Below, piece after piece: positions 5,811-59,542 of a stretch of 64,000 nucleotides of DNA. This stretch comes from an uncultured Gammaproteobacteria bacterium (GTDB lineage Bacteria > Patescibacteriota > Microgenomatia > UBA8517). The stretch spans positions 10,358 through 74,357 of the forward strand of contig CAZWNZ010000001.1 in the NCBI GenBank assembly GCA_964635715.1, read 5' to 3'. The notes under the pieces were generated by a model. That model did no database searches. It worked only from the letters and a program-made list of their open reading frames with translations, and had not been told where the DNA came from. The stretch's first letter is position 1. The number at the start of each line of letters is the position of its first letter. A program made the position numbers and the translations under genes.

Positions 5811-5911
5811 TAAGTACCAATTTCAAATTTCCAATTAATTGGGTATTTGTATTTATTTGATTATTGGTGTTCATTGGTATTTTTTTACCACGTCATCGTG
5901 GCAAGCTTTGC
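5811..5911. repeat. imperfect ~95-bp palindromic intergenic element (copy I) between rplX and rplN
   Basis: Left arm attaccaatactaccaataagtaccaatttcaaatttccaat pairs with right arm attgggtatttgtatttatttgattattggtgttcattggtattttt. Homologous to the element at 7347-7441. Confidence 0.7.
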
Positions 5912-6583: not shown

Positions 6584-6859
6584 TCACGAATTATTTTTTT
6601 TGTCAGAATTCGCATCATTCGTGTCGTTTTTATCAGTTTTATTCGCGTCGGTCAATTTCTCAATAATCTCTTTTTCTCGGATCAAGGTTAGTATTTTAGC
6701 AATTTCGGAAGACAAATTCCTCTTCAATTTTAAATTTTTCTCTTTTCCTCCCAAAATTTTCATTTTTGCCTTTTCTTCATCATTCTTTTTGGCAATAACA
6801 ATCTTCCTTAATTCCTTAATATTTTTACCCCTTAATTCGTTATATTCTTTCTTTTTCAT
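6584..6859 (-). CDS. rpmC: 50S ribosomal protein L29 with Lys/Asn/Asp-rich C-terminal tail
   Basis: ELRGKNIKELRKIVIAKKNDEEKAKMKILGGKEKNLKLKRNLSSEIAKILT fits L29; located between rplP and rpsQ. Confidence 0.85.
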   Translation of the reverse strand: MKKKEYNELRGKNIKELRKIVIAKKNDEEKAKMKILGGKEKNLKLKRNLSSEIAKILTLIREKEIIEKLTDANKTDKNDTNDANSDKKNNS

Positions 6860-6872
6860 AATGCTTTGGCTT

Positions 6873-6909
6873 TATATAAAATTCATCTTCATGCAAACTT
6901 GTTTGCATA
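6873..6909 (-). promoter_or_regulatory. conserved palindrome (TGCAAACTTGTTTGCA) plus TATATA-box element 14 nt upstream of rpmC; copy A of 3
   Basis: tatataaaattcatcttcatgcaaacttgtttgcata; compare 35995-36033 and 44716-44752. Confidence 0.5.
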
Positions 6910-6926
6910 ATTCTTCTGACAGAATT

Positions 6927-7346
6927 TTATATATTACCCTCCTCTCTACTAACCATTTTGACATCAATTGGTAGCTTTGCAGATGCCTTTCTAAAGGCCT
7001 CCTTGATAGCTGACGCTTCAGCACCAGCCACTTCAAATAGAATTAATCCCGGTTTAACTACCGCAACATATGTTGAAATATCTCCTTTGCCTCCACCCAT
7101 TCTTTTTCCCGCAGGTCGGCTGGTTATTGGTTTGTCGGGAAAAACTCTAACCCAGACTCTACCACCTCTTTTAAGATGGTGTGTTATTGTACGCCTTGCA
7201 GCTTCTATTTGTGCAGCCGTCACCCATGCAACCTCCTGAGCTTTCAAACCATAATCTCCAAAGGAAATTGAGTTTCCGCGGGTTGCGGGACCCTTTCTTC
7301 TGCCTCTGAACTCTTTTATATATTTTCTTCTTTTTGGTTGTAACAT
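6927..7346 (-). CDS. rplP: 50S ribosomal protein L16
   Basis: MLQPKRRKYIKEFRGRRKG...GGGKG L16 family; operon position. Confidence 0.93.
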   Translation of the reverse strand: MLQPKRRKYIKEFRGRRKGPATRGNSISFGDYGLKAQEVAWVTAAQIEAARRTITHHLKRGGRVWVRVFPDKPITSRPAGKRMGGGKGDISTYVAVVKPGLILFEVAGAEASAIKEAFRKASAKLPIDVKMVSREEGNI

Positions 7347-7441
7347 TGTTCAATTTCAAATAAATACCAATTTCAAATTCCAAATTTCCAAAACGAAGTT
7401 TGTTACGTATTGGGAATTTGTATTTATTGGTTTATTGGTAC
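7347..7441. repeat. imperfect ~95-bp palindromic intergenic element (copy II) between rpsC and rplP
   Basis: Arm aaataaataccaatttcaaattccaaatttccaa pairs with arm attgggaatttgtatttattggtttattggtacttatt. Shares ccaataagtaccaat and caaat/ccaat blocks with 5811-5911. Confidence 0.7.
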
Positions 7442-10674: not shown

Positions 10675-11490
10675 TTAAGCTTGTGCTTGTTCTTCAGTTT
10701 TGGCTGCTTCCGGTTTTGACTCTTCTTTAACCTCTTGTCCTTCACCTTTTACACCCTCTTCTGCCGGAGCTTCGCCTTCAACCACCTGTGCTATCACTTC
10801 TTTTTCAAGATCTTTCAAGCTACCTGATTTAATTCTTTTAATCGTTACCATGGATCCTGTGGTGCCGGGAATTTGTCCCGAAATTTCAATTGTATTTGTT
10901 TTTTCATCGACTGAAATTATGTGCAAATTTTTGATGGTAACAGTCTCTCCACCCATTCTTCCAGCCATTTTTTTGCCTTTATAGACTCTTCCCGGTGTCG
11001 TAGTCTGCCCGATTGATCCCGGAGCACGTTCACGATCGCTTTGTCCATGGGTTCTTGGCCCACCTCTAAAGTGCCATCTTTTGACAACTCCTGCAAAACC
11101 TTTCCCCTTAGAAGTTCCTGTGACGGCAACAATGTCTCCGCGCTTTAATACTTCGGCAGCATTGACAATATCTCCAACTTTAAGAGCGGAACCTGTTACG
11201 GATTCCGGTTCTTTCTCAAGCCTAACCTCTCTAAGATATCTCGGGAATGAATTTGGAATTTGGAATTTGGAATTTGGAATTTTTTTGAGGTGTCCTTGAA
11301 GGGGTTTTGAAGTATTTTTTGCAGGCCTATCTGAAAATCCGAGCTGAATTGCCCAGTATCCGTCGCGTTCCTCTTTTTTAATTTGTGTCACGACACAAGG
11401 GCCCGCAATTACTTTTGTAACGGGAATCCTAAAACCTTGAACAAAGGTTTGTGAACATATTCCTTTCGATCCTAAAATAGTATTAATCAT
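10675..11490 (-). CDS. rplC: 50S ribosomal protein L3 with loop insertion encoded by a heptanucleotide repeat and an acidic C-terminal tail
   Basis: TGTSKGKGFAGVVKRWHFRGGPRTHGQS...APGSIGQTTTPGRVYKGKKMAGRMG L3 core. Insertion KIPNSKFQIPNSFPRY lies in the loop equivalent to E. coli AGVEAGRGLWEF. Confidence 0.92.
   Translation of the reverse strand: MINTILGSKGICSQTFVQGFRIPVTKVIAGPCVVTQIKKEERDGYWAIQLGFSDRPAKNTSKPLQGHLKKIPNSKFQIPNSFPRYLREVRLEKEPESVTGSALKVGDIVNAAEVLKRGDIVAVTGTSKGKGFAGVVKRWHFRGGPRTHGQSDRERAPGSIGQTTTPGRVYKGKKMAGRMGGETVTIKNLHIISVDEKTNTIEISGQIPGTTGSMVTIKRIKSGSLKDLEKEVIAQVVEGEAPAEEGVKGEGQEVKEESKPEAAKTEEQAQA
11251..11282. repeat. (atttgga)x4.5 heptanucleotide microsatellite inside the rplC coding sequence
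   Basis: atttggaatttggaatttggaatttggaattt encodes IPNSKFQIPNS on the minus strand. Confidence 0.85.
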
Positions 11491-11540
11491 TTTGGTTTTG
11501 GAGCCCGTTAGATGTGAACACTATCTAATGGGCCATTAAA

Positions 11541-11570
11541 CAACAAAAAAGCGCCTTTGCCAGGCGCTTC
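11541..11570 (-). terminator. rho-independent terminator downstream of the membrane-protein gene 11675-12664
   Basis: Minus-strand reading aagcgcc tggcaa aggcgct followed by tttttt (plus aaaaaa at 11544-11549). Confidence 0.6.
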
Positions 11571-11674
11571 CCCTGAAGCCATCCTTTCAAAGACTCTTAA
11601 TCGTGGCTAGTGTTTATCATAACCACTATCATGTTATGAGGGGAATTATATCAGAACTTCTTGAGCTCCGCAAG

Positions 11675-12664
11675 CTAAATTGCAACAATGATGGTTGAAA
11701 TCACAATGAGAAGAACAACCGGAATTGTTTTTTTGATATTTTTATAGAATATTAGCCAAAAAATAGGCACAATTGGTGCTAAATACCTGCCTAAATTTTC
11801 CAAAAAAGGAACAAGATTGATACCAAGCGTAAAAATATAAAAAGCAGTAATAATCCAAAATTCCAAGCCACGGGATTTGAGAGCCTTCCAATATAAACAA
11901 ATATAAAAAGTAATGTAAAAAAAACCCGATAGCAAAATTCTGTACCAATGCCACCTTGCAGCTCTTATAAGATCGTAGAAAAGCTGTCCCATCCCAAAGC
12001 TAATTCTTGAAGGATGCAGCGCCTCGTAAGTAAAGAGCTGATAAAAAGGATTTTTTATTCCGAAAAAATACACGTTATAGATCACTAAAAGCACAACCGG
12101 AATCAAAAAATATGGTAGGTTAAGAACAGCCTTTTTAATTTTTTTTGTCATGATCATATAAAACACCATGCCAGCAAATATGGCTATTCCTGCAATTCTG
12201 AAAGTAACCGAGATACCCAAGACCAGAAACGCCCAACGAAATAAATCTTTTTTATAGAAATAAATTGCAAGAAGCATCAAAAATACAAAAGGCATCTCGG
12301 TATCAATTAGGGAAGACAAATTGAGTAATATCGGTGGAAAAATTAGTGGCAAAAAACTATATTTTGAACCCGTTAATTTATAGAGCAAAACATAGGATCC
12401 GATTAAAGACAATATTACAACTACATAACCTGCCAGAAATGAATTTCCTGTTATAAAATGAAGCAAATAAATGACAATTGGAAGCCCGGGCAAAAGGCGC
12501 GATTCAAAAAATGAAATTTTTCCAACATTTAAAGGAAGTGTCTCCGAATAACCAACATAGTTATCTTGCTGAACAATCCCATTATTAAATCTAATAAATG
12601 CCAAAAACACCGATATTATTACGCAAAGAATAAACAATTTATGTTTGTATATTTTTGTAAGCAT
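11675..12664 (-). CDS. polytopic membrane protein, putative glycosyltransferase/polymerase (GT-C, EpsG or Wzy-like fold); inserted between rpsJ and rplC
   Basis: About 10 predicted TM helices; aromatic and Pro-rich loops (FESRLLPGLPIVIY...). No soluble domain. Adjacent to a sugar-nucleotide epimerase. Confidence 0.35.
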   Translation of the reverse strand: MLTKIYKHKLFILCVIISVFLAFIRFNNGIVQQDNYVGYSETLPLNVGKISFFESRLLPGLPIVIYLLHFITGNSFLAGYVVVILSLIGSYVLLYKLTGSKYSFLPLIFPPILLNLSSLIDTEMPFVFLMLLAIYFYKKDLFRWAFLVLGISVTFRIAGIAIFAGMVFYMIMTKKIKKAVLNLPYFLIPVVLLVIYNVYFFGIKNPFYQLFTYEALHPSRISFGMGQLFYDLIRAARWHWYRILLSGFFYITFYICLYWKALKSRGLEFWIITAFYIFTLGINLVPFLENLGRYLAPIVPIFWLIFYKNIKKTIPVVLLIVISTIIVAI

Positions 12665-12690
12665 TCGGAAGTATTATACTCTGAAACAAC

Positions 12691-13566
12691 ATGATACTTG
12701 TCACCGGTTCTTCTGGATTTATCGGCAGTAAACTTTTACCCCTTATTAGAAAGAAATATCCAAAAGAAGTTGTTACGGTTTTGAACAAAAATAATTGCAA
12801 TTTAGTAACCGGTCGGGGGCTATCGAAGCTTTCGGGAAAACCAAAAATAGTCTTTCATCTTGCTGCAACAACTGACACATCCAAAAGAGATCAGAGATGT
12901 AACGATATTGGAACCAAAAACCTTTTGAAGGCACTTCCAAGCCTCGGTCCAAAAACGCATTTTATATATACAAGCTCTCAAGTTGTATATTCGGGGAGAA
13001 GCGACACCGGAAAATTAATCACTTCAAAAACAGCTACTGCCACGAATAACAAGTACGGCAAAACTAAACTCATGGCAGAAAAAATTCTTCTTAGGGCCGC
13101 TAAAGAAAAAGGATTCAAACTGACGATAATAAGACTTCCAACTGTTTGGGGAGAAAATCCCAGAAAAAATGCTTTTTTGAATTTTTTGAGAAAACTTACT
13201 AAAAAGAATTCTATATTTTCAAGATTTGACTGGCCGGGCAAAGTTGCTCTTGTCTATGTTGAGGACGCAGTAAAATATATACTTAAGGCGGGGGAAATGC
13301 ATCCACAAACCATTTCTATAGCCGTAGAAAATCTAACTCTTGCCCAAATTTTTGAAAAAAATTACATAAATCAAGGTAAAATTTATAAGCAAATTAAGGT
13401 TCCGAACTTTGTTTGGAGCTTAGCTAGATTCTTAAGACCGTATTTAAAATATTTTGAATTTATTCTTCCAACAAGTCTTTTTAATTATCTTTGGAGAACA
13501 TCAATAATTGTGGATAGTCCCCTTGCCTGCAAGGTAAACATAAAAGGTAAAAAATTTGCCGGATAA
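12691..13566 (+). CDS. NAD-dependent epimerase/dehydratase (extended SDR family)
   Basis: N-terminal Rossmann motif MILVTGSSGFIGSKL; about 290 aa, typical of UDP-sugar epimerases and dehydratases. Confidence 0.7.
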   Translation: MILVTGSSGFIGSKLLPLIRKKYPKEVVTVLNKNNCNLVTGRGLSKLSGKPKIVFHLAATTDTSKRDQRCNDIGTKNLLKALPSLGPKTHFIYTSSQVVYSGRSDTGKLITSKTATATNNKYGKTKLMAEKILLRAAKEKGFKLTIIRLPTVWGENPRKNAFLNFLRKLTKKNSIFSRFDWPGKVALVYVEDAVKYILKAGEMHPQTISIAVENLTLAQIFEKNYINQGKIYKQIKVPNFVWSLARFLRPYLKYFEFILPTSLFNYLWRTSIIVDSPLACKVNIKGKKFAG

Positions 13567-13705
13567 TTGGTTACGGCTACCAGGAATGGGTTTTGCACCC
13601 ATTGGATTGTTAAAATGTTTTATTGTTAAATGGTTGTATGGGTAAATATCTGAAACTAAATGATATTAGCTCCTACAAAAAGGCGTTTACTTTATCAAAT
13701 TATGT

Positions 13706-13930
13706 ATGGAATATTGTAGACAAATGGAATTTCCTAGCAAAAAAGATAAGATTAACTTTTATCGTATGAGTAGGGGTTCAACTTTGGAATGTCTTGACTG
13801 GACTCAAAAGGCATATGTTAGGAAACTGATTACCAAATCTGAATATAAAAACATCATGTCAGATTTAAAAAGCATGCCCCTAGAAATTAATCAACTAATT
13901 AAATTCACGAATTTGAAGCTAAAAGAATAG
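13706..13930 (+). pseudogene. four-helix-bundle protein (TIGR02436 / '23S rRNA intervening-sequence protein' family), C-terminal fragment only
   Basis: EYCRQMEFPSKKDKINFYRMSRGSTLECLDWTQKAYVRKLI...EINQLIKF matches the family C-terminal half (AEGxxRxSxKEFxxFLxIARGSxxEL...). The N-terminal ~50 aa are missing, and an out-of-frame remnant (KKAFTLSNYVWNIVDKWNFLAKK) lies upstream. Confidence 0.45.
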
Positions 13931-13965
13931 CAATTTGACAATTTAACAATACAACAATTGAGATC

Positions 13966-14274
13966 TTACATCTTAATCTCAATGGAGACACCTGCCGGGA
14001 GGTCCATGTTTCCAAGAGAATCCACCGTACGGGGAGAGGGATCGATAATATCAATTAAACGTTTGTGAACTAAAATTTCAAAGTGTTCTTGGGCATCTTT
14101 GTCCGTAAAAGGAGACTCTTTAACAGCCATCATGGATCTTTTTGTGGGGAGAGGAATGGGGCCGATTATTTTTGCACCAGTGGCTAGAGCGGTATCAACA
14201 ATTTTTGCTGCCGCCTCATCTACTACTCTATGATCGTAGCTTTTGAGCTTTACTCTAAGTCTTGAGCTTGCCAT
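13966..14274 (-). CDS. rpsJ: 30S ribosomal protein S10
   Basis: RLRVKLKSYDHRVVDEAAAKIVDTALATGAKIIGPIPLPTK...; immediately downstream of tuf. Confidence 0.94.
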   Translation of the reverse strand: MASSRLRVKLKSYDHRVVDEAAAKIVDTALATGAKIIGPIPLPTKRSMMAVKESPFTDKDAQEHFEILVHKRLIDIIDPSPRTVDSLGNMDLPAGVSIEIKM

Positions 14275-17808: not shown

Positions 17809-17896
17809 ATCAGTTTGAATCTAGAATCTTGAATGTGGAATCTAGAGGACAAGAGTGATTTTAACAGGAGATTGAATCTAAATCAATAACAGATGA

Positions 17897-18330
17897 TTAA
17901 AATTTTCTATTTACTAGATGCCTATCTGTGTAAATAAGAACGTTTTGACCTTTGAAATTTAGATTATCTCTCTTTACTTTGAAACCTTGATTTTTTGCAT
18001 AATCAATTAGTGATTCTAACCAATTTACATTTGGTTTTTTAACTAAGGGTTCATCAATTACACAACAGGGTCAACCACGGTTACATCCCAGCCGTTTATA
18101 TTTAACAAAAGTGAAAGCAATCCTTTTCCACCACCAACATCTAAGGCTTTGGTGGGTTTGTATTTTTGGCTAAGCCACATCTGTAAAAGCTGAAAACGAA
18201 ACTTGTTGTTCAATCTTCGTTTTGTATTCATTAATCGGATTATACATTTTTTTAAATAATGAATTATATTATCTATTTTAATATTAATTAGTTCGATGGT
18301 TCGAACTATGGTACTATAAATATATGACAC
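17897..18330 (-). pseudogene. class I SAM-dependent methyltransferase remnant, frameshifted after motif I
   Basis: ORF 18058-18330 ends ...ALDVGGGKGLLSLLLNINGWDVTVVDPVV* (motif I). A second frame continues DEPLVKKPNVNWLESLIDYAKNQGFKVKRDNLNFKGQNVLIYTD... to a stop at 17897-17899. Confidence 0.45.
18289..18309. repeat. 21-bp direct repeat, 5' copy flanking TrpR-like gene 2 (8-4-8 dyad tagttcga-tggt-tcgaacta)
   Basis: tagttcgatggttcgaactat, identical to 18765-18785. Confidence 0.85.
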
Positions 18331-18767
18331 AAGTTTCTAGACATTTTATGAATCCTGATATTGAAAAGCGAGTTTATGAGGTATTTATAGAATCTGTTAA
18401 AAACACCAGAAATTCAAATGAAGTAATTGATTTTTTAAATGACTTACTTTCCCCTGTCGAAAAAATTATGATGGCAAAAAGAGTGGCCGTCGCATTTCTT
18501 TTACTTCAGGATAAATATACCTATGACCAAATTTCCAAAACCGTAAAGGTTAGTAGGGGTACAATTGCAAAAATTCATACCACTTTTGCTCTACAAGGAA
18601 AGGGGTATAGAAAAATTCTGGGAGATATTCTTAAAAGGAAAGTTGCGAAAATTGCATTATCGGAACTATTAGACGCGATAACTCTTCTTCCTCCAAAAGG
18701 TGCAAATCTTGGAGAATGGAAAAAGATGAAACGAAATGACAAATTAAAGAGAGAAAGTCCAATATAG
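18324..18767 (+). CDS. TrpR/YerC-like helix-turn-helix DNA-binding protein (paralogue 2 of 3)
   Basis: FLNDLLSPVEKIMMAKRVAVAFLLLQDKYTYDQISKTVKVSRGTIAKI (TrpR helix pattern). Confidence 0.6.
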   Translation: MTQVSRHFMNPDIEKRVYEVFIESVKNTRNSNEVIDFLNDLLSPVEKIMMAKRVAVAFLLLQDKYTYDQISKTVKVSRGTIAKIHTTFALQGKGYRKILGDILKRKVAKIALSELLDAITLLPPKGANLGEWKKMKRNDKLKRESPI

Positions 18768-28277: not shown

Positions 28278-28423
28278 TCTAATAAATTATACCATGAAGC
28301 GCTCTAGGTCAAGCTGATAAAACCTTTGGACACAAACCGAGCCCTAAACAGAAAATCATCAACACCAAAAAAGTGTGAATCAAATCTGCCTAGGGCTCGT
28401 AAAACTATTCAAATCAAAGAGAG

Positions 28424-29612: not shown

Positions 29613-29650
29613 AACTGGAATTATATTAAGAATAATCGCAAAGTCAAAAA

Positions 29651-30034: not shown

Positions 30035-30121
30035 AAATTAGTATTTAGTAGTTAGAAATTAGAAACTAGATCTGGAATGTATTTTAGCAGTTCCTAACTA
30101 CTAACTTCTAGATTCCAACTC

Positions 30122-35001: not shown

Positions 35002-35089
35002 ATTGAATCTAGAATATAGAATTTCGAATTCAGTTAAAAAACCGCAGACAGAAAAGGCTTCTTTTTTCCTAGATTCCAGATTCTAATTA

Positions 35090-35974: not shown

Positions 35975-35994
35975 GCTTTAAACTTGTTTAAAAT

Positions 35995-36033
35995 ATATAA
36001 AACTTATCCTCTTATTGCAAACTTGTCTGCACG
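35995..36033 (-). promoter_or_regulatory. conserved palindrome (TGCAAACTTGTCTGCA) plus TATATA-box element 20 nt upstream of rodZ; copy B of 3
   Basis: tatataaaacttatcctcttattgcaaacttgtctgcac. Confidence 0.5.
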
Positions 36034-36136
36034 ATTCTACCAATTAAGTTTTATATAATATAAAAAACCTTATAAAATTCACCCTATTGTAGACTTGCTC
36101 ACATAAATTCCTGGTAGAATTTCATATTACAATTCC

Positions 36137-40637: not shown

Positions 40638-40655
40638 AAAATTGATCCTAAATAC

Positions 40656-40679
40656 TACATTACTATATAGTAATGTAGT
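40656..40679. repeat. perfect 24-bp palindrome ctacattactat|atagtaatgtag, same family as those flanking TrpR-like gene 3; orphan copy 16 nt upstream of the udg start
   Basis: Compare cttcaatactatatagtattgaag (49195-49218) and ctacaatactatatagtattgtag (49676-49699). Confidence 0.8.
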
Positions 40680-40685
40680 GGAGTA

Positions 40686-44715: not shown

Positions 44716-44752
44716 TATATAAAACTTATCTTCTTGCAAATTTATTTGCATA
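44716..44752 (-). promoter_or_regulatory. conserved palindrome (TGCAAATTTATTTGCA) plus TATATA-box element 20 nt upstream of pnp; copy C of 3
   Basis: tatataaaacttatcttcttgcaaatttatttgcata. Confidence 0.5.
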
Positions 44753-44788
44753 ACATTAGTGACAAAGTTTTATATTATTATTCAATTT

Positions 44789-47580: not shown

Positions 47581-47680
47581 AGTTTTATTTATTCTAAAAG
47601 TAAGAATCTAGTAGCTAGAAGTTAGTAGCTAGGAGTATCAAAAAGTTTGAAGGTGAAAAAATAATTTGATAGTTTTCATT

Positions 47681-48878: not shown

Positions 48879-49194
48879 AAATCAAATACTCAATTCCAGA
48901 TACAAGTTTAACTCATTAAAGCTAAAAACTCAAGCTACATAAGTAAGTTAATTTTGAGTATTAGTCTTCCCGAACATCTGCTGAAGTTCTTTTTCCGTCG
49001 GGTTTCTTTTTTCCTATTCACATTTTTTCATTAACCTGCAAATAGGACAGTCATCAATAATACAATTATTGCTTGATACCATAATGGCGTCACCTACTTT
49101 TTTACTGGATGTTTTCATCCTACCGTTTATAAATTTATATCATTCAAATCTGCAAATATTCAAGTGATTATTTTTATGATATATTGAATATATA

Positions 49195-49218
49195 CTTCAA
49201 TACTATATAGTATTGAAG
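49195..49218. repeat. perfect 24-bp palindrome cttcaatactat|atagtattgaag, 4 nt upstream of the TrpR-like gene 3 start
   Basis: Self-complementary by inspection. Confidence 0.85.
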
Positions 49219-49222
49219 TGCT

Positions 49223-49672
49223 ATGACTAAAATTTCAAAATTGCCATTAAGATCTGATGTTTGGAATCGGATTTTTGATTTGTTCGTCAGTACCCTATCC
49301 AACCAAAGAGATAAAAAGAAATTATCAAATTTTATTAATGATTTTTTCTCGCCAACTGAAAGAATAATGTTTGCAAAAAGGTTGGCTATTGCGGTTCTGG
49401 TCGCAAAAGGCCAAGATTATCAAAGTATCCACGAAATTTTGAAAGTAAGTCCACCAACTATTGCAAAACTTAGTTTAAGAATCAAATATATGGGGGAGGG
49501 TTTAAACCCTGTTATTAGAGATATTTTTAAGAGTCAGGCGTTGCAAATTATATGGAAAGAAACTGAAGATCTGTTTGATTTGCCAACAAAAGGTAACTTA
49601 AAATCGCCCGAAAGATTTAAAAGAAAACTTCGAAGAGTGAAGCAAATTAATAAAATGAGATCGGAATTTTAA
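49223..49672 (+). CDS. TrpR/YerC-like helix-turn-helix DNA-binding protein (paralogue 3 of 3)
   Basis: FINDFFSPTERIMFAKRLAIAVLVAKGQDYQSIHEILKVSPPTIAKL. Confidence 0.6.
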   Translation: MTKISKLPLRSDVWNRIFDLFVSTLSNQRDKKKLSNFINDFFSPTERIMFAKRLAIAVLVAKGQDYQSIHEILKVSPPTIAKLSLRIKYMGEGLNPVIRDIFKSQALQIIWKETEDLFDLPTKGNLKSPERFKRKLRRVKQINKMRSEF

Positions 49673-49675
49673 CTA

Positions 49676-49704
49676 CTACAATACTATATAGTATTGTAGT
49701 TTTT
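49676..49704 (+). terminator. perfect 24-bp palindrome ctacaatactat|atagtattgtag plus TTTTT; 3' copy of the gene-3 flanking repeat and probable terminator
   Basis: Begins 3 nt after the TAA stop; followed by ttttt at 49700-49704. Confidence 0.6.
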
Positions 49705-49734
49705 AGGCACAAAATTACATTAATTTCATCAAAT

Positions 49735-53547: not shown

Positions 53548-53598
53548 ATGTTTTCTCCATCCACTAAATACTATATCCTAGATTCTAGCTACTAATTT

Positions 53599-54369: not shown

Positions 54370-54379
54370 CGAGTGCTAA
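54353..54379 (-). promoter_or_regulatory. CIRCE-like inverted repeat (TTAGCAGTA-N9-GAGTGCTAA) overlapping the hrcA translation start
   Basis: Plus strand ttagcagta tcgtacatc gagtgctaa; consensus is TTAGCACTC-N9-GAGTGCTAA (7/9 + 9/9). Confidence 0.65.
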
Positions 54380-54400
54380 TTAATGTCAATACCATAAATT

Positions 54401-59507: not shown

Positions 59508-59542
59508 ATTGAATCTAGAATTATAAATTACTAATAATATCC

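Follow-up and report, generated by a model that had tools for sequence, protein, structure and literature searches.

Introduction

Correia elements of Neisseria (CREE/NEMIS) are bounded by inverted repeats, have TATA-rich ends, lie between genes inside transcription units at sites that vary from strain to strain, and, being co-transcribed with the adjacent genes, fold into hairpins open to binding or cleavage by RNase III (PMC2649163, PMC2229807); outward -10/-35 promoters can also arise at their ends (PMC2649163). Repetitive extragenic palindromes (REPs) have lengths of 20-40 bp and bear a GTAG or CGTC tag on one side; they are associated with RAYT transposases, are missing at the orthologous sites in relatives and are thought to stabilise mRNA 3'-ends (PMC3733652). 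Here we describe a nested hairpin repeat of ~60 nucleotides (nt) in a 64 kb stretch of contig CAZWNZ010000001.1; 'the window' is this whole stretch, and the strand of the element is given relative to the flanking genes ('sense'). Although the general phenomenon is familiar from other bacteria, the family is apparently undescribed in bacteria of the Candidate Phyla Radiation (CPR). We think it probable, with moderate confidence, that the element is a lineage-specific dispersed repeat resembling REPs or MITEs (transposable elements of miniature size with inverted repeats), co-transcribed inside operons of a narrow Microgenomates-like clade, and not the operator of a regulon.

The likeness to Correia elements is that of small non-coding inverted-repeat elements situated between genes, with sites differing between strains. 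There is no sequence similarity, however. CREE are ~100-155 bp long, with 26-bp terminal repeats, a TA duplication and a site for integration host factor (IHF), whereas the element described here has ~60-85 nt, no duplication seen and a tail on one side only; the IHF consensus WATCARNNNNTTR has a perfect match to the 5' loop in copy D only. The host is a CPR bacterium, and for its element RNase III cleavage and promoter activity are predictions. With REP, BIME and REPIN sequences the element shares the character of short imperfect palindromes between co-transcribed genes, sometimes in tandem, but it is a ~60-nt nested structure with ends TATATAAAA/TTTTATATA and no tag, and no RAYT was seen. 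As it falls outside the definition of REPs and has no visible target duplication, we have therefore filed it only under small dispersed palindromic intergenic repeats, MITE-like.

RNase III signals of the T7 R1.1 type are intercistronic hairpins of ~50-60 nt in which an asymmetric internal loop separates a lower from an upper stem, with about two helical turns in all, and they lie just upstream of the initiation region of the next gene. The element resembles them, and the hairpin of the Escherichia coli rpsO-pnp junction, in shape and position only (lower helix of ~15 bp, asymmetric loop, upper helix of 6-9 bp), and copy C occupies the same rpsO/pnp junction; its stems are far more A/U-rich, and no RNase III gene was located in the sequence available. 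The dyad of 16 bp that overlaps the -35-like hexamer, with the sequence TGTGA-N6-TCACA in copies F and K, is reminiscent of a class II CRP/FNR-type activator site. The dyad centre would be near -37.5 rather than -41.5, though, and the dyad varies in a pair-preserving manner or is missing, while the sites are unconserved. TIGR-Tas arrays were set aside, being tandem guide arrays and not single junction hairpins. A search with Rfam gave no match at gathering score in the whole window (only noise, E>1, around copy B), and the literature search returned nothing relevant on CPR intergenic palindromic repeats or on Patescibacteria promoters and leaderless mRNAs.

Copies of the element in the window

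On the minus strand, positions 6873-6907 read TGCAAACAAGTTTGCA-TGAAGATGAATTTTA-TATATA, and the ATG of the gene in the rpmC position (6859-6857) follows 13 nt past the TATATA; this arrangement recurs at 35994-36031 and 44716-44750. The initial annotation of the window had proposed that such a palindrome-plus-TATATA module is repeated at three sites, and the module is real: the pattern TGCARAYWWRTTTGCA-N7-10-RARTTTTATATA has three matches in the window versus 0.00 expected from 100 dinucleotide shuffles, and TGCA-N8-TGCA does not occur elsewhere in the 64 kb. Re-checked in an alignment, the three sites hold together, with upstream arms added. Aligning both strands of the three sites made it visible that TTTTATATA is mirrored upstream of the inner palindrome by TATATAAAA. 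Each site has an upstream arm (T)ATATAAAAYYY, the complement of RRRTTTTATAT(A), and the outer-arm pattern ATATAAAAYYY-N30-45-RRRTTTTATAT finds exactly the sites of copies A, B and C (three versus 0 expected). The unit is therefore a nested inverted repeat of ~60 nt, of which only the 3' two-thirds had been seen.

A covariance model trained on nine copies found four copies in the window, not three. The additional one, B', is decayed and lies directly upstream of B; with the filters switched off the model found no window copy beyond A, B, B' and C. At the same loci the sense strand scored 70-84 bits and the antisense strand 21-36 bits, which makes the element clearly directional. RNA folds of copies A, B and C had energies of -12 to -21 kcal/mol (z from -2.3 to -5.1). 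The copies and their parts are as follows.

6873..6933, minus strand: copy A, full nested hairpin as read from the sequence, at the junction of rplP (L16) and the rpmC-position gene; RNA fold -20.7 kcal/mol, z=-5.1
6868-6937, minus strand: covariance-model match of copy A, 80.3 bits, E~1e-15
6922..6933, minus strand: 5' arm of the outer stem P1 of copy A, TATATAAAATTC, with the rplP stop codon (6929-6927) inside
6892..6907, minus strand: inner palindrome P2 of copy A, TGCAAACAAGTTTGCA, stem of 6-7 bp, CAAG loop; its 3' half is the TTTGCA earlier called '-35-like'
6873..6884, minus strand: 3' arm of P1 of copy A, GAATTTTATATA, containing the TATATA box of the initial annotation
6860..6872, minus strand: tail of copy A, AAGCCAAAGCATT, from the hairpin to the ATG at 6859
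35994..36057, minus strand: copy B, at the junction of ftsK and a RodZ-like helix-turn-helix (HTH) gene; P2 is TGCAGACAAGTTTGCA with one G·U; 70.9 bits
35975..35993, minus strand: tail of copy B, AA-centred palindrome P3 TTTAAAC-AA-GTTTAAA, then GC and ATG
36064..36132, minus strand: copy B', decayed, in tandem with B and immediately upstream of it; P2 is TGTGAGCAAGTCTACA; 72.1 bits, E~1e-13
44716..44775, minus strand: copy C, at the rpsO/pnp junction; P2 is TGCAAATAAATTTGCA (compensatory change of C-G to U-A); 74.7 bits
44697..44715, minus strand: tail of copy C, small palindrome P3 TTAAAT-AA-ATTTAA, then ATT and ATG

Structure and pairing

The unit has a length of ~60 nt, or ~85 nt with the tail included. 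Its outer stem P1 pairs TATATAAAAYYY with RRRTTTTATATA over 12 bp and is A/U-rich (UAUAUAAAAYYY/RRRUUUUAUAUA); every copy has these arms, of 11-12 bp, as terminal inverted repeats. P1 is followed by a bulge of 1 nt and by three further pairs, P1b (GUC/GAU, AUC/GGU or ACC/GGU). Next comes an asymmetric internal loop with ~10 nt in the 5' strand (consensus CAGNAAUUUA / CAGNAATTTA) and ~4 purine-rich nt in the 3' strand, the long spacer being on the upstream side in every case. The inner stem P2 (TGCAAA/TTTGCA) has 6-7 bp and is closed by a CAAG or UAAA loop. In shape only, the whole is like an RNase III-type hairpin, with about two turns of helix (12 bp of P1, 3 bp of P1b and 6-9 bp of P2, with the asymmetric loop).

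In some subfamilies an extra tail of 13-19 nt lies outside the 3' arm. Most copies have, between P1 and the start codon, a short tail with a small AA-centred palindrome (e.g. TTTAAAC-AA-GTTTAAA or TTTTGAT-AA-ATCAAAA), and in many of them this second palindrome abuts the next start codon; in contrast, the tail of copy A has no convincing small hairpin. Stems of >=6 bp were present in eight of 13 tails versus 6-9% in control upstream regions and shuffles, and they are thermodynamically weak. There are also 'type-2' copies (one each in three loci of relatives: the second copy in L099, 8707-8780 in L100 and a shortened one in L097), where P1, the 5' loop motif and the TATAAT-like end are kept and P2 is swapped for a different short hairpin (...TTCAAAGAATCTCTTGGAA...).

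Pairing statistics were computed on a MAFFT alignment of 11 copies. Standard pairs occupied 94.2% of stem cells, versus 27-50% when the partner was slid by 1-3 columns. Two-sided changes were seen in eight of 22 pairs; the shuffle mean was 3.8, and none of 500 shuffles reached the observed value. The inner triplet of P1 has the compensatory variants TTC/GAA, CTT/AAG, CCC/GGG and TCC/GGA, several of them at one orthologous junction, ftsK/HTH. The claim that the dyad is kept through compensatory changes was borne out as well, with P2 variants changed on both sides: TGCAAAC/GTTTGCA, TGCAAAT/ATTTGCA, TGTGAAC/GTTCACA and CGTGAAC/GTTCACG. Among non-Watson-Crick cells on the sense strand there were 14 G·U versus two A·C, and the sense RNA folded better than the antisense RNA in 14 of 15 copies (Wilcoxon p~0.001). 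Of the options left by the initial annotation, an RNA hairpin is thus the better supported, as both stems covary and both strand comparisons point to the sense RNA; this signal suggests that it is the hairpin in the RNA that is maintained.

All copies have the same (sense) orientation relative to the flanking genes, and the element fills the short gap between stop and start codons of co-directional genes. The three window loci have no terminator-like sites; mixed sequence follows the A/U-rich stems, so the candidate role of an intrinsic terminator, with a G+C-rich stem and a T run, was rejected there. As the junctions belong to tight operons without terminators, the elements are very probably co-transcribed with the operon mRNA, a conclusion drawn from same-strand tight spacing.

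The element, transcribed within an operon mRNA, would fold as an interrupted hairpin of ~22-24 bp, and selection would keep it paired on the sense strand. By analogy with the systems described above, the most likely effect of such an intercistronic stem-loop would be that of an RNase III-type processing site or of a stabiliser or insulator; a role in processing or stability is thus a prediction. Alternatively, the fold may simply make the insertion harmless. The TTTGCA/TTCACA-N17-TATAAT sequence in the 3' half may give a weak outward promoter as a by-product.

Occurrence at filled and empty junctions of relatives

Loci of relatives (designated by L numbers) were gathered by collection-wide motif scans and by taking the loci around homologues of RNase J and S3, and were then searched for the element. 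The scan of genome contigs returned 86 stretches, nearly all of them due to chance or to ordinary terminators in which a T run follows a TGCA...TGCA stem, with one true relative only, L078. Among the six stretches from metagenomes two were real (L089 and L091), one (L087) was a possible distant or degenerate relative and the others were due to chance. In the viral contig collection there were eight pattern matches, none of them backed by the covariance model. The copies of L078/L089 are at the rpsB/tsf junction (S2 and EF-Ts, confirmed by Pfam), and that of L091 is at the ftsK/HTH junction. Altogether, the window and its relatives have copies at six different gene junctions.

rplP/rpmC: filled in the window (copy A); empty, 8-18 nt, in L102, L103 and L104
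rpmC/rpsQ, one junction downstream of the site of copy A: filled in L102 and L104; empty in the window and L103
ftsK/HTH: filled in the window (two copies), L091, L094, L099 (two copies) and L100; empty in L097, L101, L113 and L114
rpsO/pnp: filled in the window, L097 and L100; empty in L094, L099, L101, L113 and L114
rpsB/tsf: filled in L078/L089
AAA/metallophosphoesterase: filled in L100; empty in the window

It is the occupation of different junctions in close relatives that gives the element its MITE- or REP-like look. The empty rpsO/pnp junction is 17-19 nt long in L094 and L099. A clean pair of empty and filled sites was found at the AAA/metallophosphoesterase junction, where the window has TATACAATAGGTTGA directly followed by ATG and L100 has TATACAATAGGTGAA, then 85 nt, then ATG. 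There was no target-site duplication at this pair and none was evident at the other junctions; a TA duplication of 1-2 nt could hide in the A/T-rich context. More distant relatives (L101, L113 and L114, with RNase J identity of 80-81%) had no copy at the sampled junctions. Tandem copies occur twice, as B' and B in the window and as I1 and I2 in L099.

The initial annotation had read copy A as an internal regulated start of the S10 operon. The three relatives without the element at rplP/rpmC argue that this junction is not a conserved regulatory site, and a conserved start there is not supported.

Identity between copies tracks subfamily and not locus. Copy F (ftsK/HTH, L094) is 93% identical to copy K (rpmC/rpsQ, L104), and copy D (rpsB/tsf) is 90% identical to copy H (rpsO/pnp), while F is only 70-75% identical to its orthologous copies B and E; copy B' is in type closest to F, which lies at the same junction in L094. 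A tail TTTT(T)GATAAATCAAAAGC of 18-19 nt abuts the ATG at two unrelated junctions. The element would spread, or be copied between loci, as a unit that is gained and lost among close relatives.

Weighing of alternative explanations

An internal sigma-70 promoter module is an unlikely explanation. The 3' half of P2 would serve as -35 and TATATA(A/T)T in the 3' arm as -10 at 17-nt spacing, with very short leaders or none, and the palindrome could be an overlapping site of an operator or activator. The -35/-10 idea had been raised in the initial annotation, and the sequences are there: TTTGCA/TTCACA followed after 17 nt by TATAAT, TATAAA or TATATT is found in most copies of type 1 (A, C, D, E, F, H, I1, J and K), every copy has its box at a distance of 6-19 nt from the start codon, and only the sense side fits, as the spacer asymmetry makes the antisense spacing ~22 nt. 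The P2 variant TGTGA-N6-TCACA is the same as the CRP-type consensus, and promoters of consensus type that end 7-8 nt before ATG indicate that leaderless geometry is in use in this genome. Still, in a simple scan for sigma-70 promoters with a threshold of 9/12 consensus matches only copy B passed, and the hits were no more numerous than in shuffles; copies A and C have no T at position 6 of the -10 box, whereas true promoters of this genome are near-consensus TTGACA-N17-TATAAT with 11-12/12 matches. A -35 box is altogether missing from copy G and the type-2 copies, in which the outer stem and TATAAT are retained. A promoter would explain neither the covariation of the upstream arm with the -10 region nor the G·U mismatches of the sense strand, and a start at rplP/rpmC or rpmC/rpsQ that only some of the relatives possess is unconserved. 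An operator defining a regulon is not supported. The dyad sequence is not conserved over the sites (four variants at paired positions, replacement in type-2 copies), which argues against an operator; it differs even between B and B' in one genome, so there is no single operator, and the element is not conserved upstream of orthologous genes in relatives. A conserved cis-regulatory RNA leader, i.e. a riboswitch or an autoregulatory site for a ribosomal protein or PNPase, is most improbable. A structured covarying RNA directly upstream of start codons would fit it, as would the place of copy C at rpsO/pnp, where the RNase III/PNPase autoregulatory site of E. coli is a hairpin; but the downstream genes are unrelated (those for L29, S17, EF-Ts, PNPase, a phosphoesterase and a RodZ-like protein), close relatives have no such leader at the orthologous junctions, and no Rfam family matches.

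Quite unlikely, too, is a selfish element acting at the DNA level, i.e. a hairpin-ended non-autonomous transposon (IS200/IS605-derived or REP-like) whose single-stranded DNA hairpins would be required by the transposase, whose orientation would reflect the replication strand and which would have no function in RNA. Such a transposon would agree with the presence/absence polymorphism, with the clustering of copies by subfamily, with the missing target-site duplication at the clean empty/filled pair and with asymmetric ends (a large hairpin on the left, a small hairpin and a fixed ...AAAGC on the right). Over the whole window the GC skew makes the minus strand the leading strand, so replication and transcription run the same way and their effects on orientation are inseparable here. 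In DNA hairpins, too, G·T is the mismatch that is tolerated best. On the other hand, no transposase was among the scanned open reading frames (ORFs) of the window, and no HUH/Y1 transposase or RAYT was found in the window or in ~300 kb of the relatives' loci; the small plus-strand ORFs are TrpR/YerC-like and not TnpA. There is neither a constant tetranucleotide 5' of the left end nor a GTAG/CGTC tag. Also, compensatory changes have continued in place at the ftsK/HTH junction, orthologous in the different genomes (TTC/GAA, TCC/GGA, CCC/GGG), which argues for selection after insertion, though templated repair could mimic it.

The reading that we prefer, a dispersed hairpin repeat co-transcribed within operons, has several points against it. 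A target-site duplication was not found, nor was a cognate transposase in the loci sampled, and the label 'mobile' rests on presence/absence and on similarity between copies. The copies share ancestry; hence counts of changes are not counts of independent events, and the shuffle statistics overstate independence. The pairing could be kept up at the DNA level, via a single-stranded DNA hairpin or template-switch 'quasipalindrome correction'. The loop sequences and a fixed distance of 15 nt between palindrome and TATATA are conserved, which would also fit a promoter or protein site. With -7 to -21 kcal/mol, the A/U-rich stems have only moderate stability. Finally, the ftsK/HTH junction is filled in five of nine sampled lineages, and a locus-specific function is possible there.

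One could speculate further that the element is a self-spreading 'operon punctuation' cassette, in which a hairpin that stabilises the RNA or is processed by a double-strand-specific RNase is combined with an initiation tail independent of Shine-Dalgarno (SD) sequences and which inserts between stop and start, rewiring the expression of cistrons; we consider this decidedly unlikely. The initiation tail would consist of the A/U-rich 3' arm and the small hairpin ending in ...AAAGC-AUG. A ribosome terminating upstream, at stop codons 0-20 nt away or inside the element, would melt the outer stem, and the melting would couple downstream initiation to upstream translation. Expression would be rewired in this way even in the S10/spc ribosomal operon of a streamlined CPR genome. 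Another idea, that the hairpin bridges a displaced SD sequence to the AUG, is at best a minor speculation: it fits copies M, E and F (effective spacing of 6-7 nt) and fails for A, C, D, H and K, in a window where SD-like motifs are scarce (10 of 70 genes). Integron attC and dif-type recombination sites were discarded by eye, as their core sequences do not fit.

Host and gene context

The RNase J and S3 proteins of the window are nearest to entries of 'Candidatus Microgenomates/Woesebacteria'; therefore, the host is a Microgenomates-like bacterium of the CPR/Patescibacteria. The genome containing L078 and L097 (GCA_964606975.1, CAZSGY01) is titled 'uncultured Gammaproteobacteria bacterium'; it is syntenic with the window, its RNase J is 87% identical to that of the window, and it is a Microgenomates-like CPR genome, so that its label looks wrong. 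The gene order of the window includes rpoB-rpoC-rpsL-rpsG-fusA-tuf-S10/spc and hrcA-grpE-dnaK-dnaJ.

The gene upstream of copy A codes for L16 (Pfam); an exact-protein look-up returned no identical protein on record for it. The 91-aa ORF downstream is L29 by position and by a sub-threshold Pfam match only (E=0.12). Copies B' and B are flanked by FtsK and then by an HTH_25/RodZ-like protein, and the flanks of copy C were confirmed as S15 (rpsO) and PNPase (pnp). As the rplP stop codon is located within the 5' arm of copy A, L16 is two codons longer than in relatives, ending in ...EEGNI* versus ...EEE* or ...REE*. At 6927-6938 an apparent deletion of 1 nt before the ancestral TAA carries the L16 frame these two codons into the element. 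Judged from the sequence, the insertion of copy A has remodelled the C-terminus of ribosomal protein L16.

Only 10 of 70 predicted genes of the window are preceded by an SD-like motif at a distance of 4-18 nt from the start, upstream regions being mostly A/U-rich; the absence of SD sequences before element-associated genes is therefore nothing special. On the minus strand, the near-consensus sigma-70 promoters TTGACT-N17-TATAAT and TTGACC-N17-TATAAT (29613-29650 and 28278-28423) end 7-8 nt before ATG, which implies that this CPR genome has mRNAs with no leader or almost none.

In the S10 region rpsJ (S10, 13966-14274) is separated from rplC (L3) by ~2.5 kb (region 10675-14274) with non-ribosomal genes in between, an opposite-strand epimerase and a 329-aa protein with no Pfam match; the interruption is similar in L102-L104. 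At ~54370-54392 of the minus strand, immediately before the predicted hrcA start, there is a half-site of the CIRCE operator, TTAGCACTC; given its position, the heat-shock operon appears to keep classical HrcA/CIRCE control. A CIRCE/HrcA operator was rejected as an identity for the repeat, which has a different sequence, hrcA having its own TTAGCACTC element.

Other repeats in the window

The window has at least two further families of intergenic hairpin repeats, located at junctions that are short in relatives. The second family, ACTACAWTACTATATAGTAWTGTAGT, has copies at 40649-40683, 49189-49223 and 49671-49705, with perfect stems of 11-12 bp (z about -4.1 to -4.6). Two of these flank a TrpR-like gene (49223-49672), and the third fills the junction of the genes for uracil-DNA glycosylase and a metallophosphoesterase, which overlap in relatives. 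The third family consists of long G·U-rich hairpins, CCAATAAATACAAATWCCCAA...TTGGAAATTTGRAATTTGAAATTGGTA, at 5811-5911 and 7347-7441, in the L14/L24 and S3/L16 junctions of S10/spc; in L102-L104 these junctions have only 5-28 nt, from which it follows that the ribosomal operon carries three separate hairpin insertions.

Three divergent HTH paralogs similar to TrpR/YerC-YecD (22-27% identical) are encoded on the plus strand at 1551-1976, 18324-18767 and 49223-49672, antisense to the surrounding operons. One is situated between rpsG and fusA; in relatives, rpsG and fusA (L103) as well as the NUDIX gene and nusA (L094) are directly adjacent. For one of the paralogs there was a match, below threshold, with the N-terminus of the IS630 transposase. 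As candidates for a cognate regulator of the element the paralogs were dismissed, since nothing ties them to it and the dyad is not conserved. Many intergenic regions contain CTAG-rich motifs, GAATCTAGA / TCTAGATTC and variants (17809-18057, 30035-30121, 35002-35089, 47581-47680, 53548-53598 and 59508-59542), which could represent either a further repeat or a binding motif; operators of the TrpR type typically have CTAG cores.

Significance

Genomes of CPR/Patescibacteria are very small and streamlined, the usual description being that they contain little mobile DNA, and hardly anything about their promoters, RNA processing and translation signals has been characterised. Here, several families of hairpin repeats colonise the gaps between stop and start codons in the most highly conserved operons (S10/spc, rpsO-pnp and rpsB-tsf), with turnover between relatives whose RNase J and S3 are at least 83% identical to those of the window. 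For the prediction of regulons there is a warning that a repeated 'palindrome + TATA' motif may be a dispersed repeat and not an operator. If the hairpins are merely tolerated, they would be useful as strain-level markers; if they are processed or alter expression, they would be a cheap and portable way to re-tune operons in organisms with few regulators.

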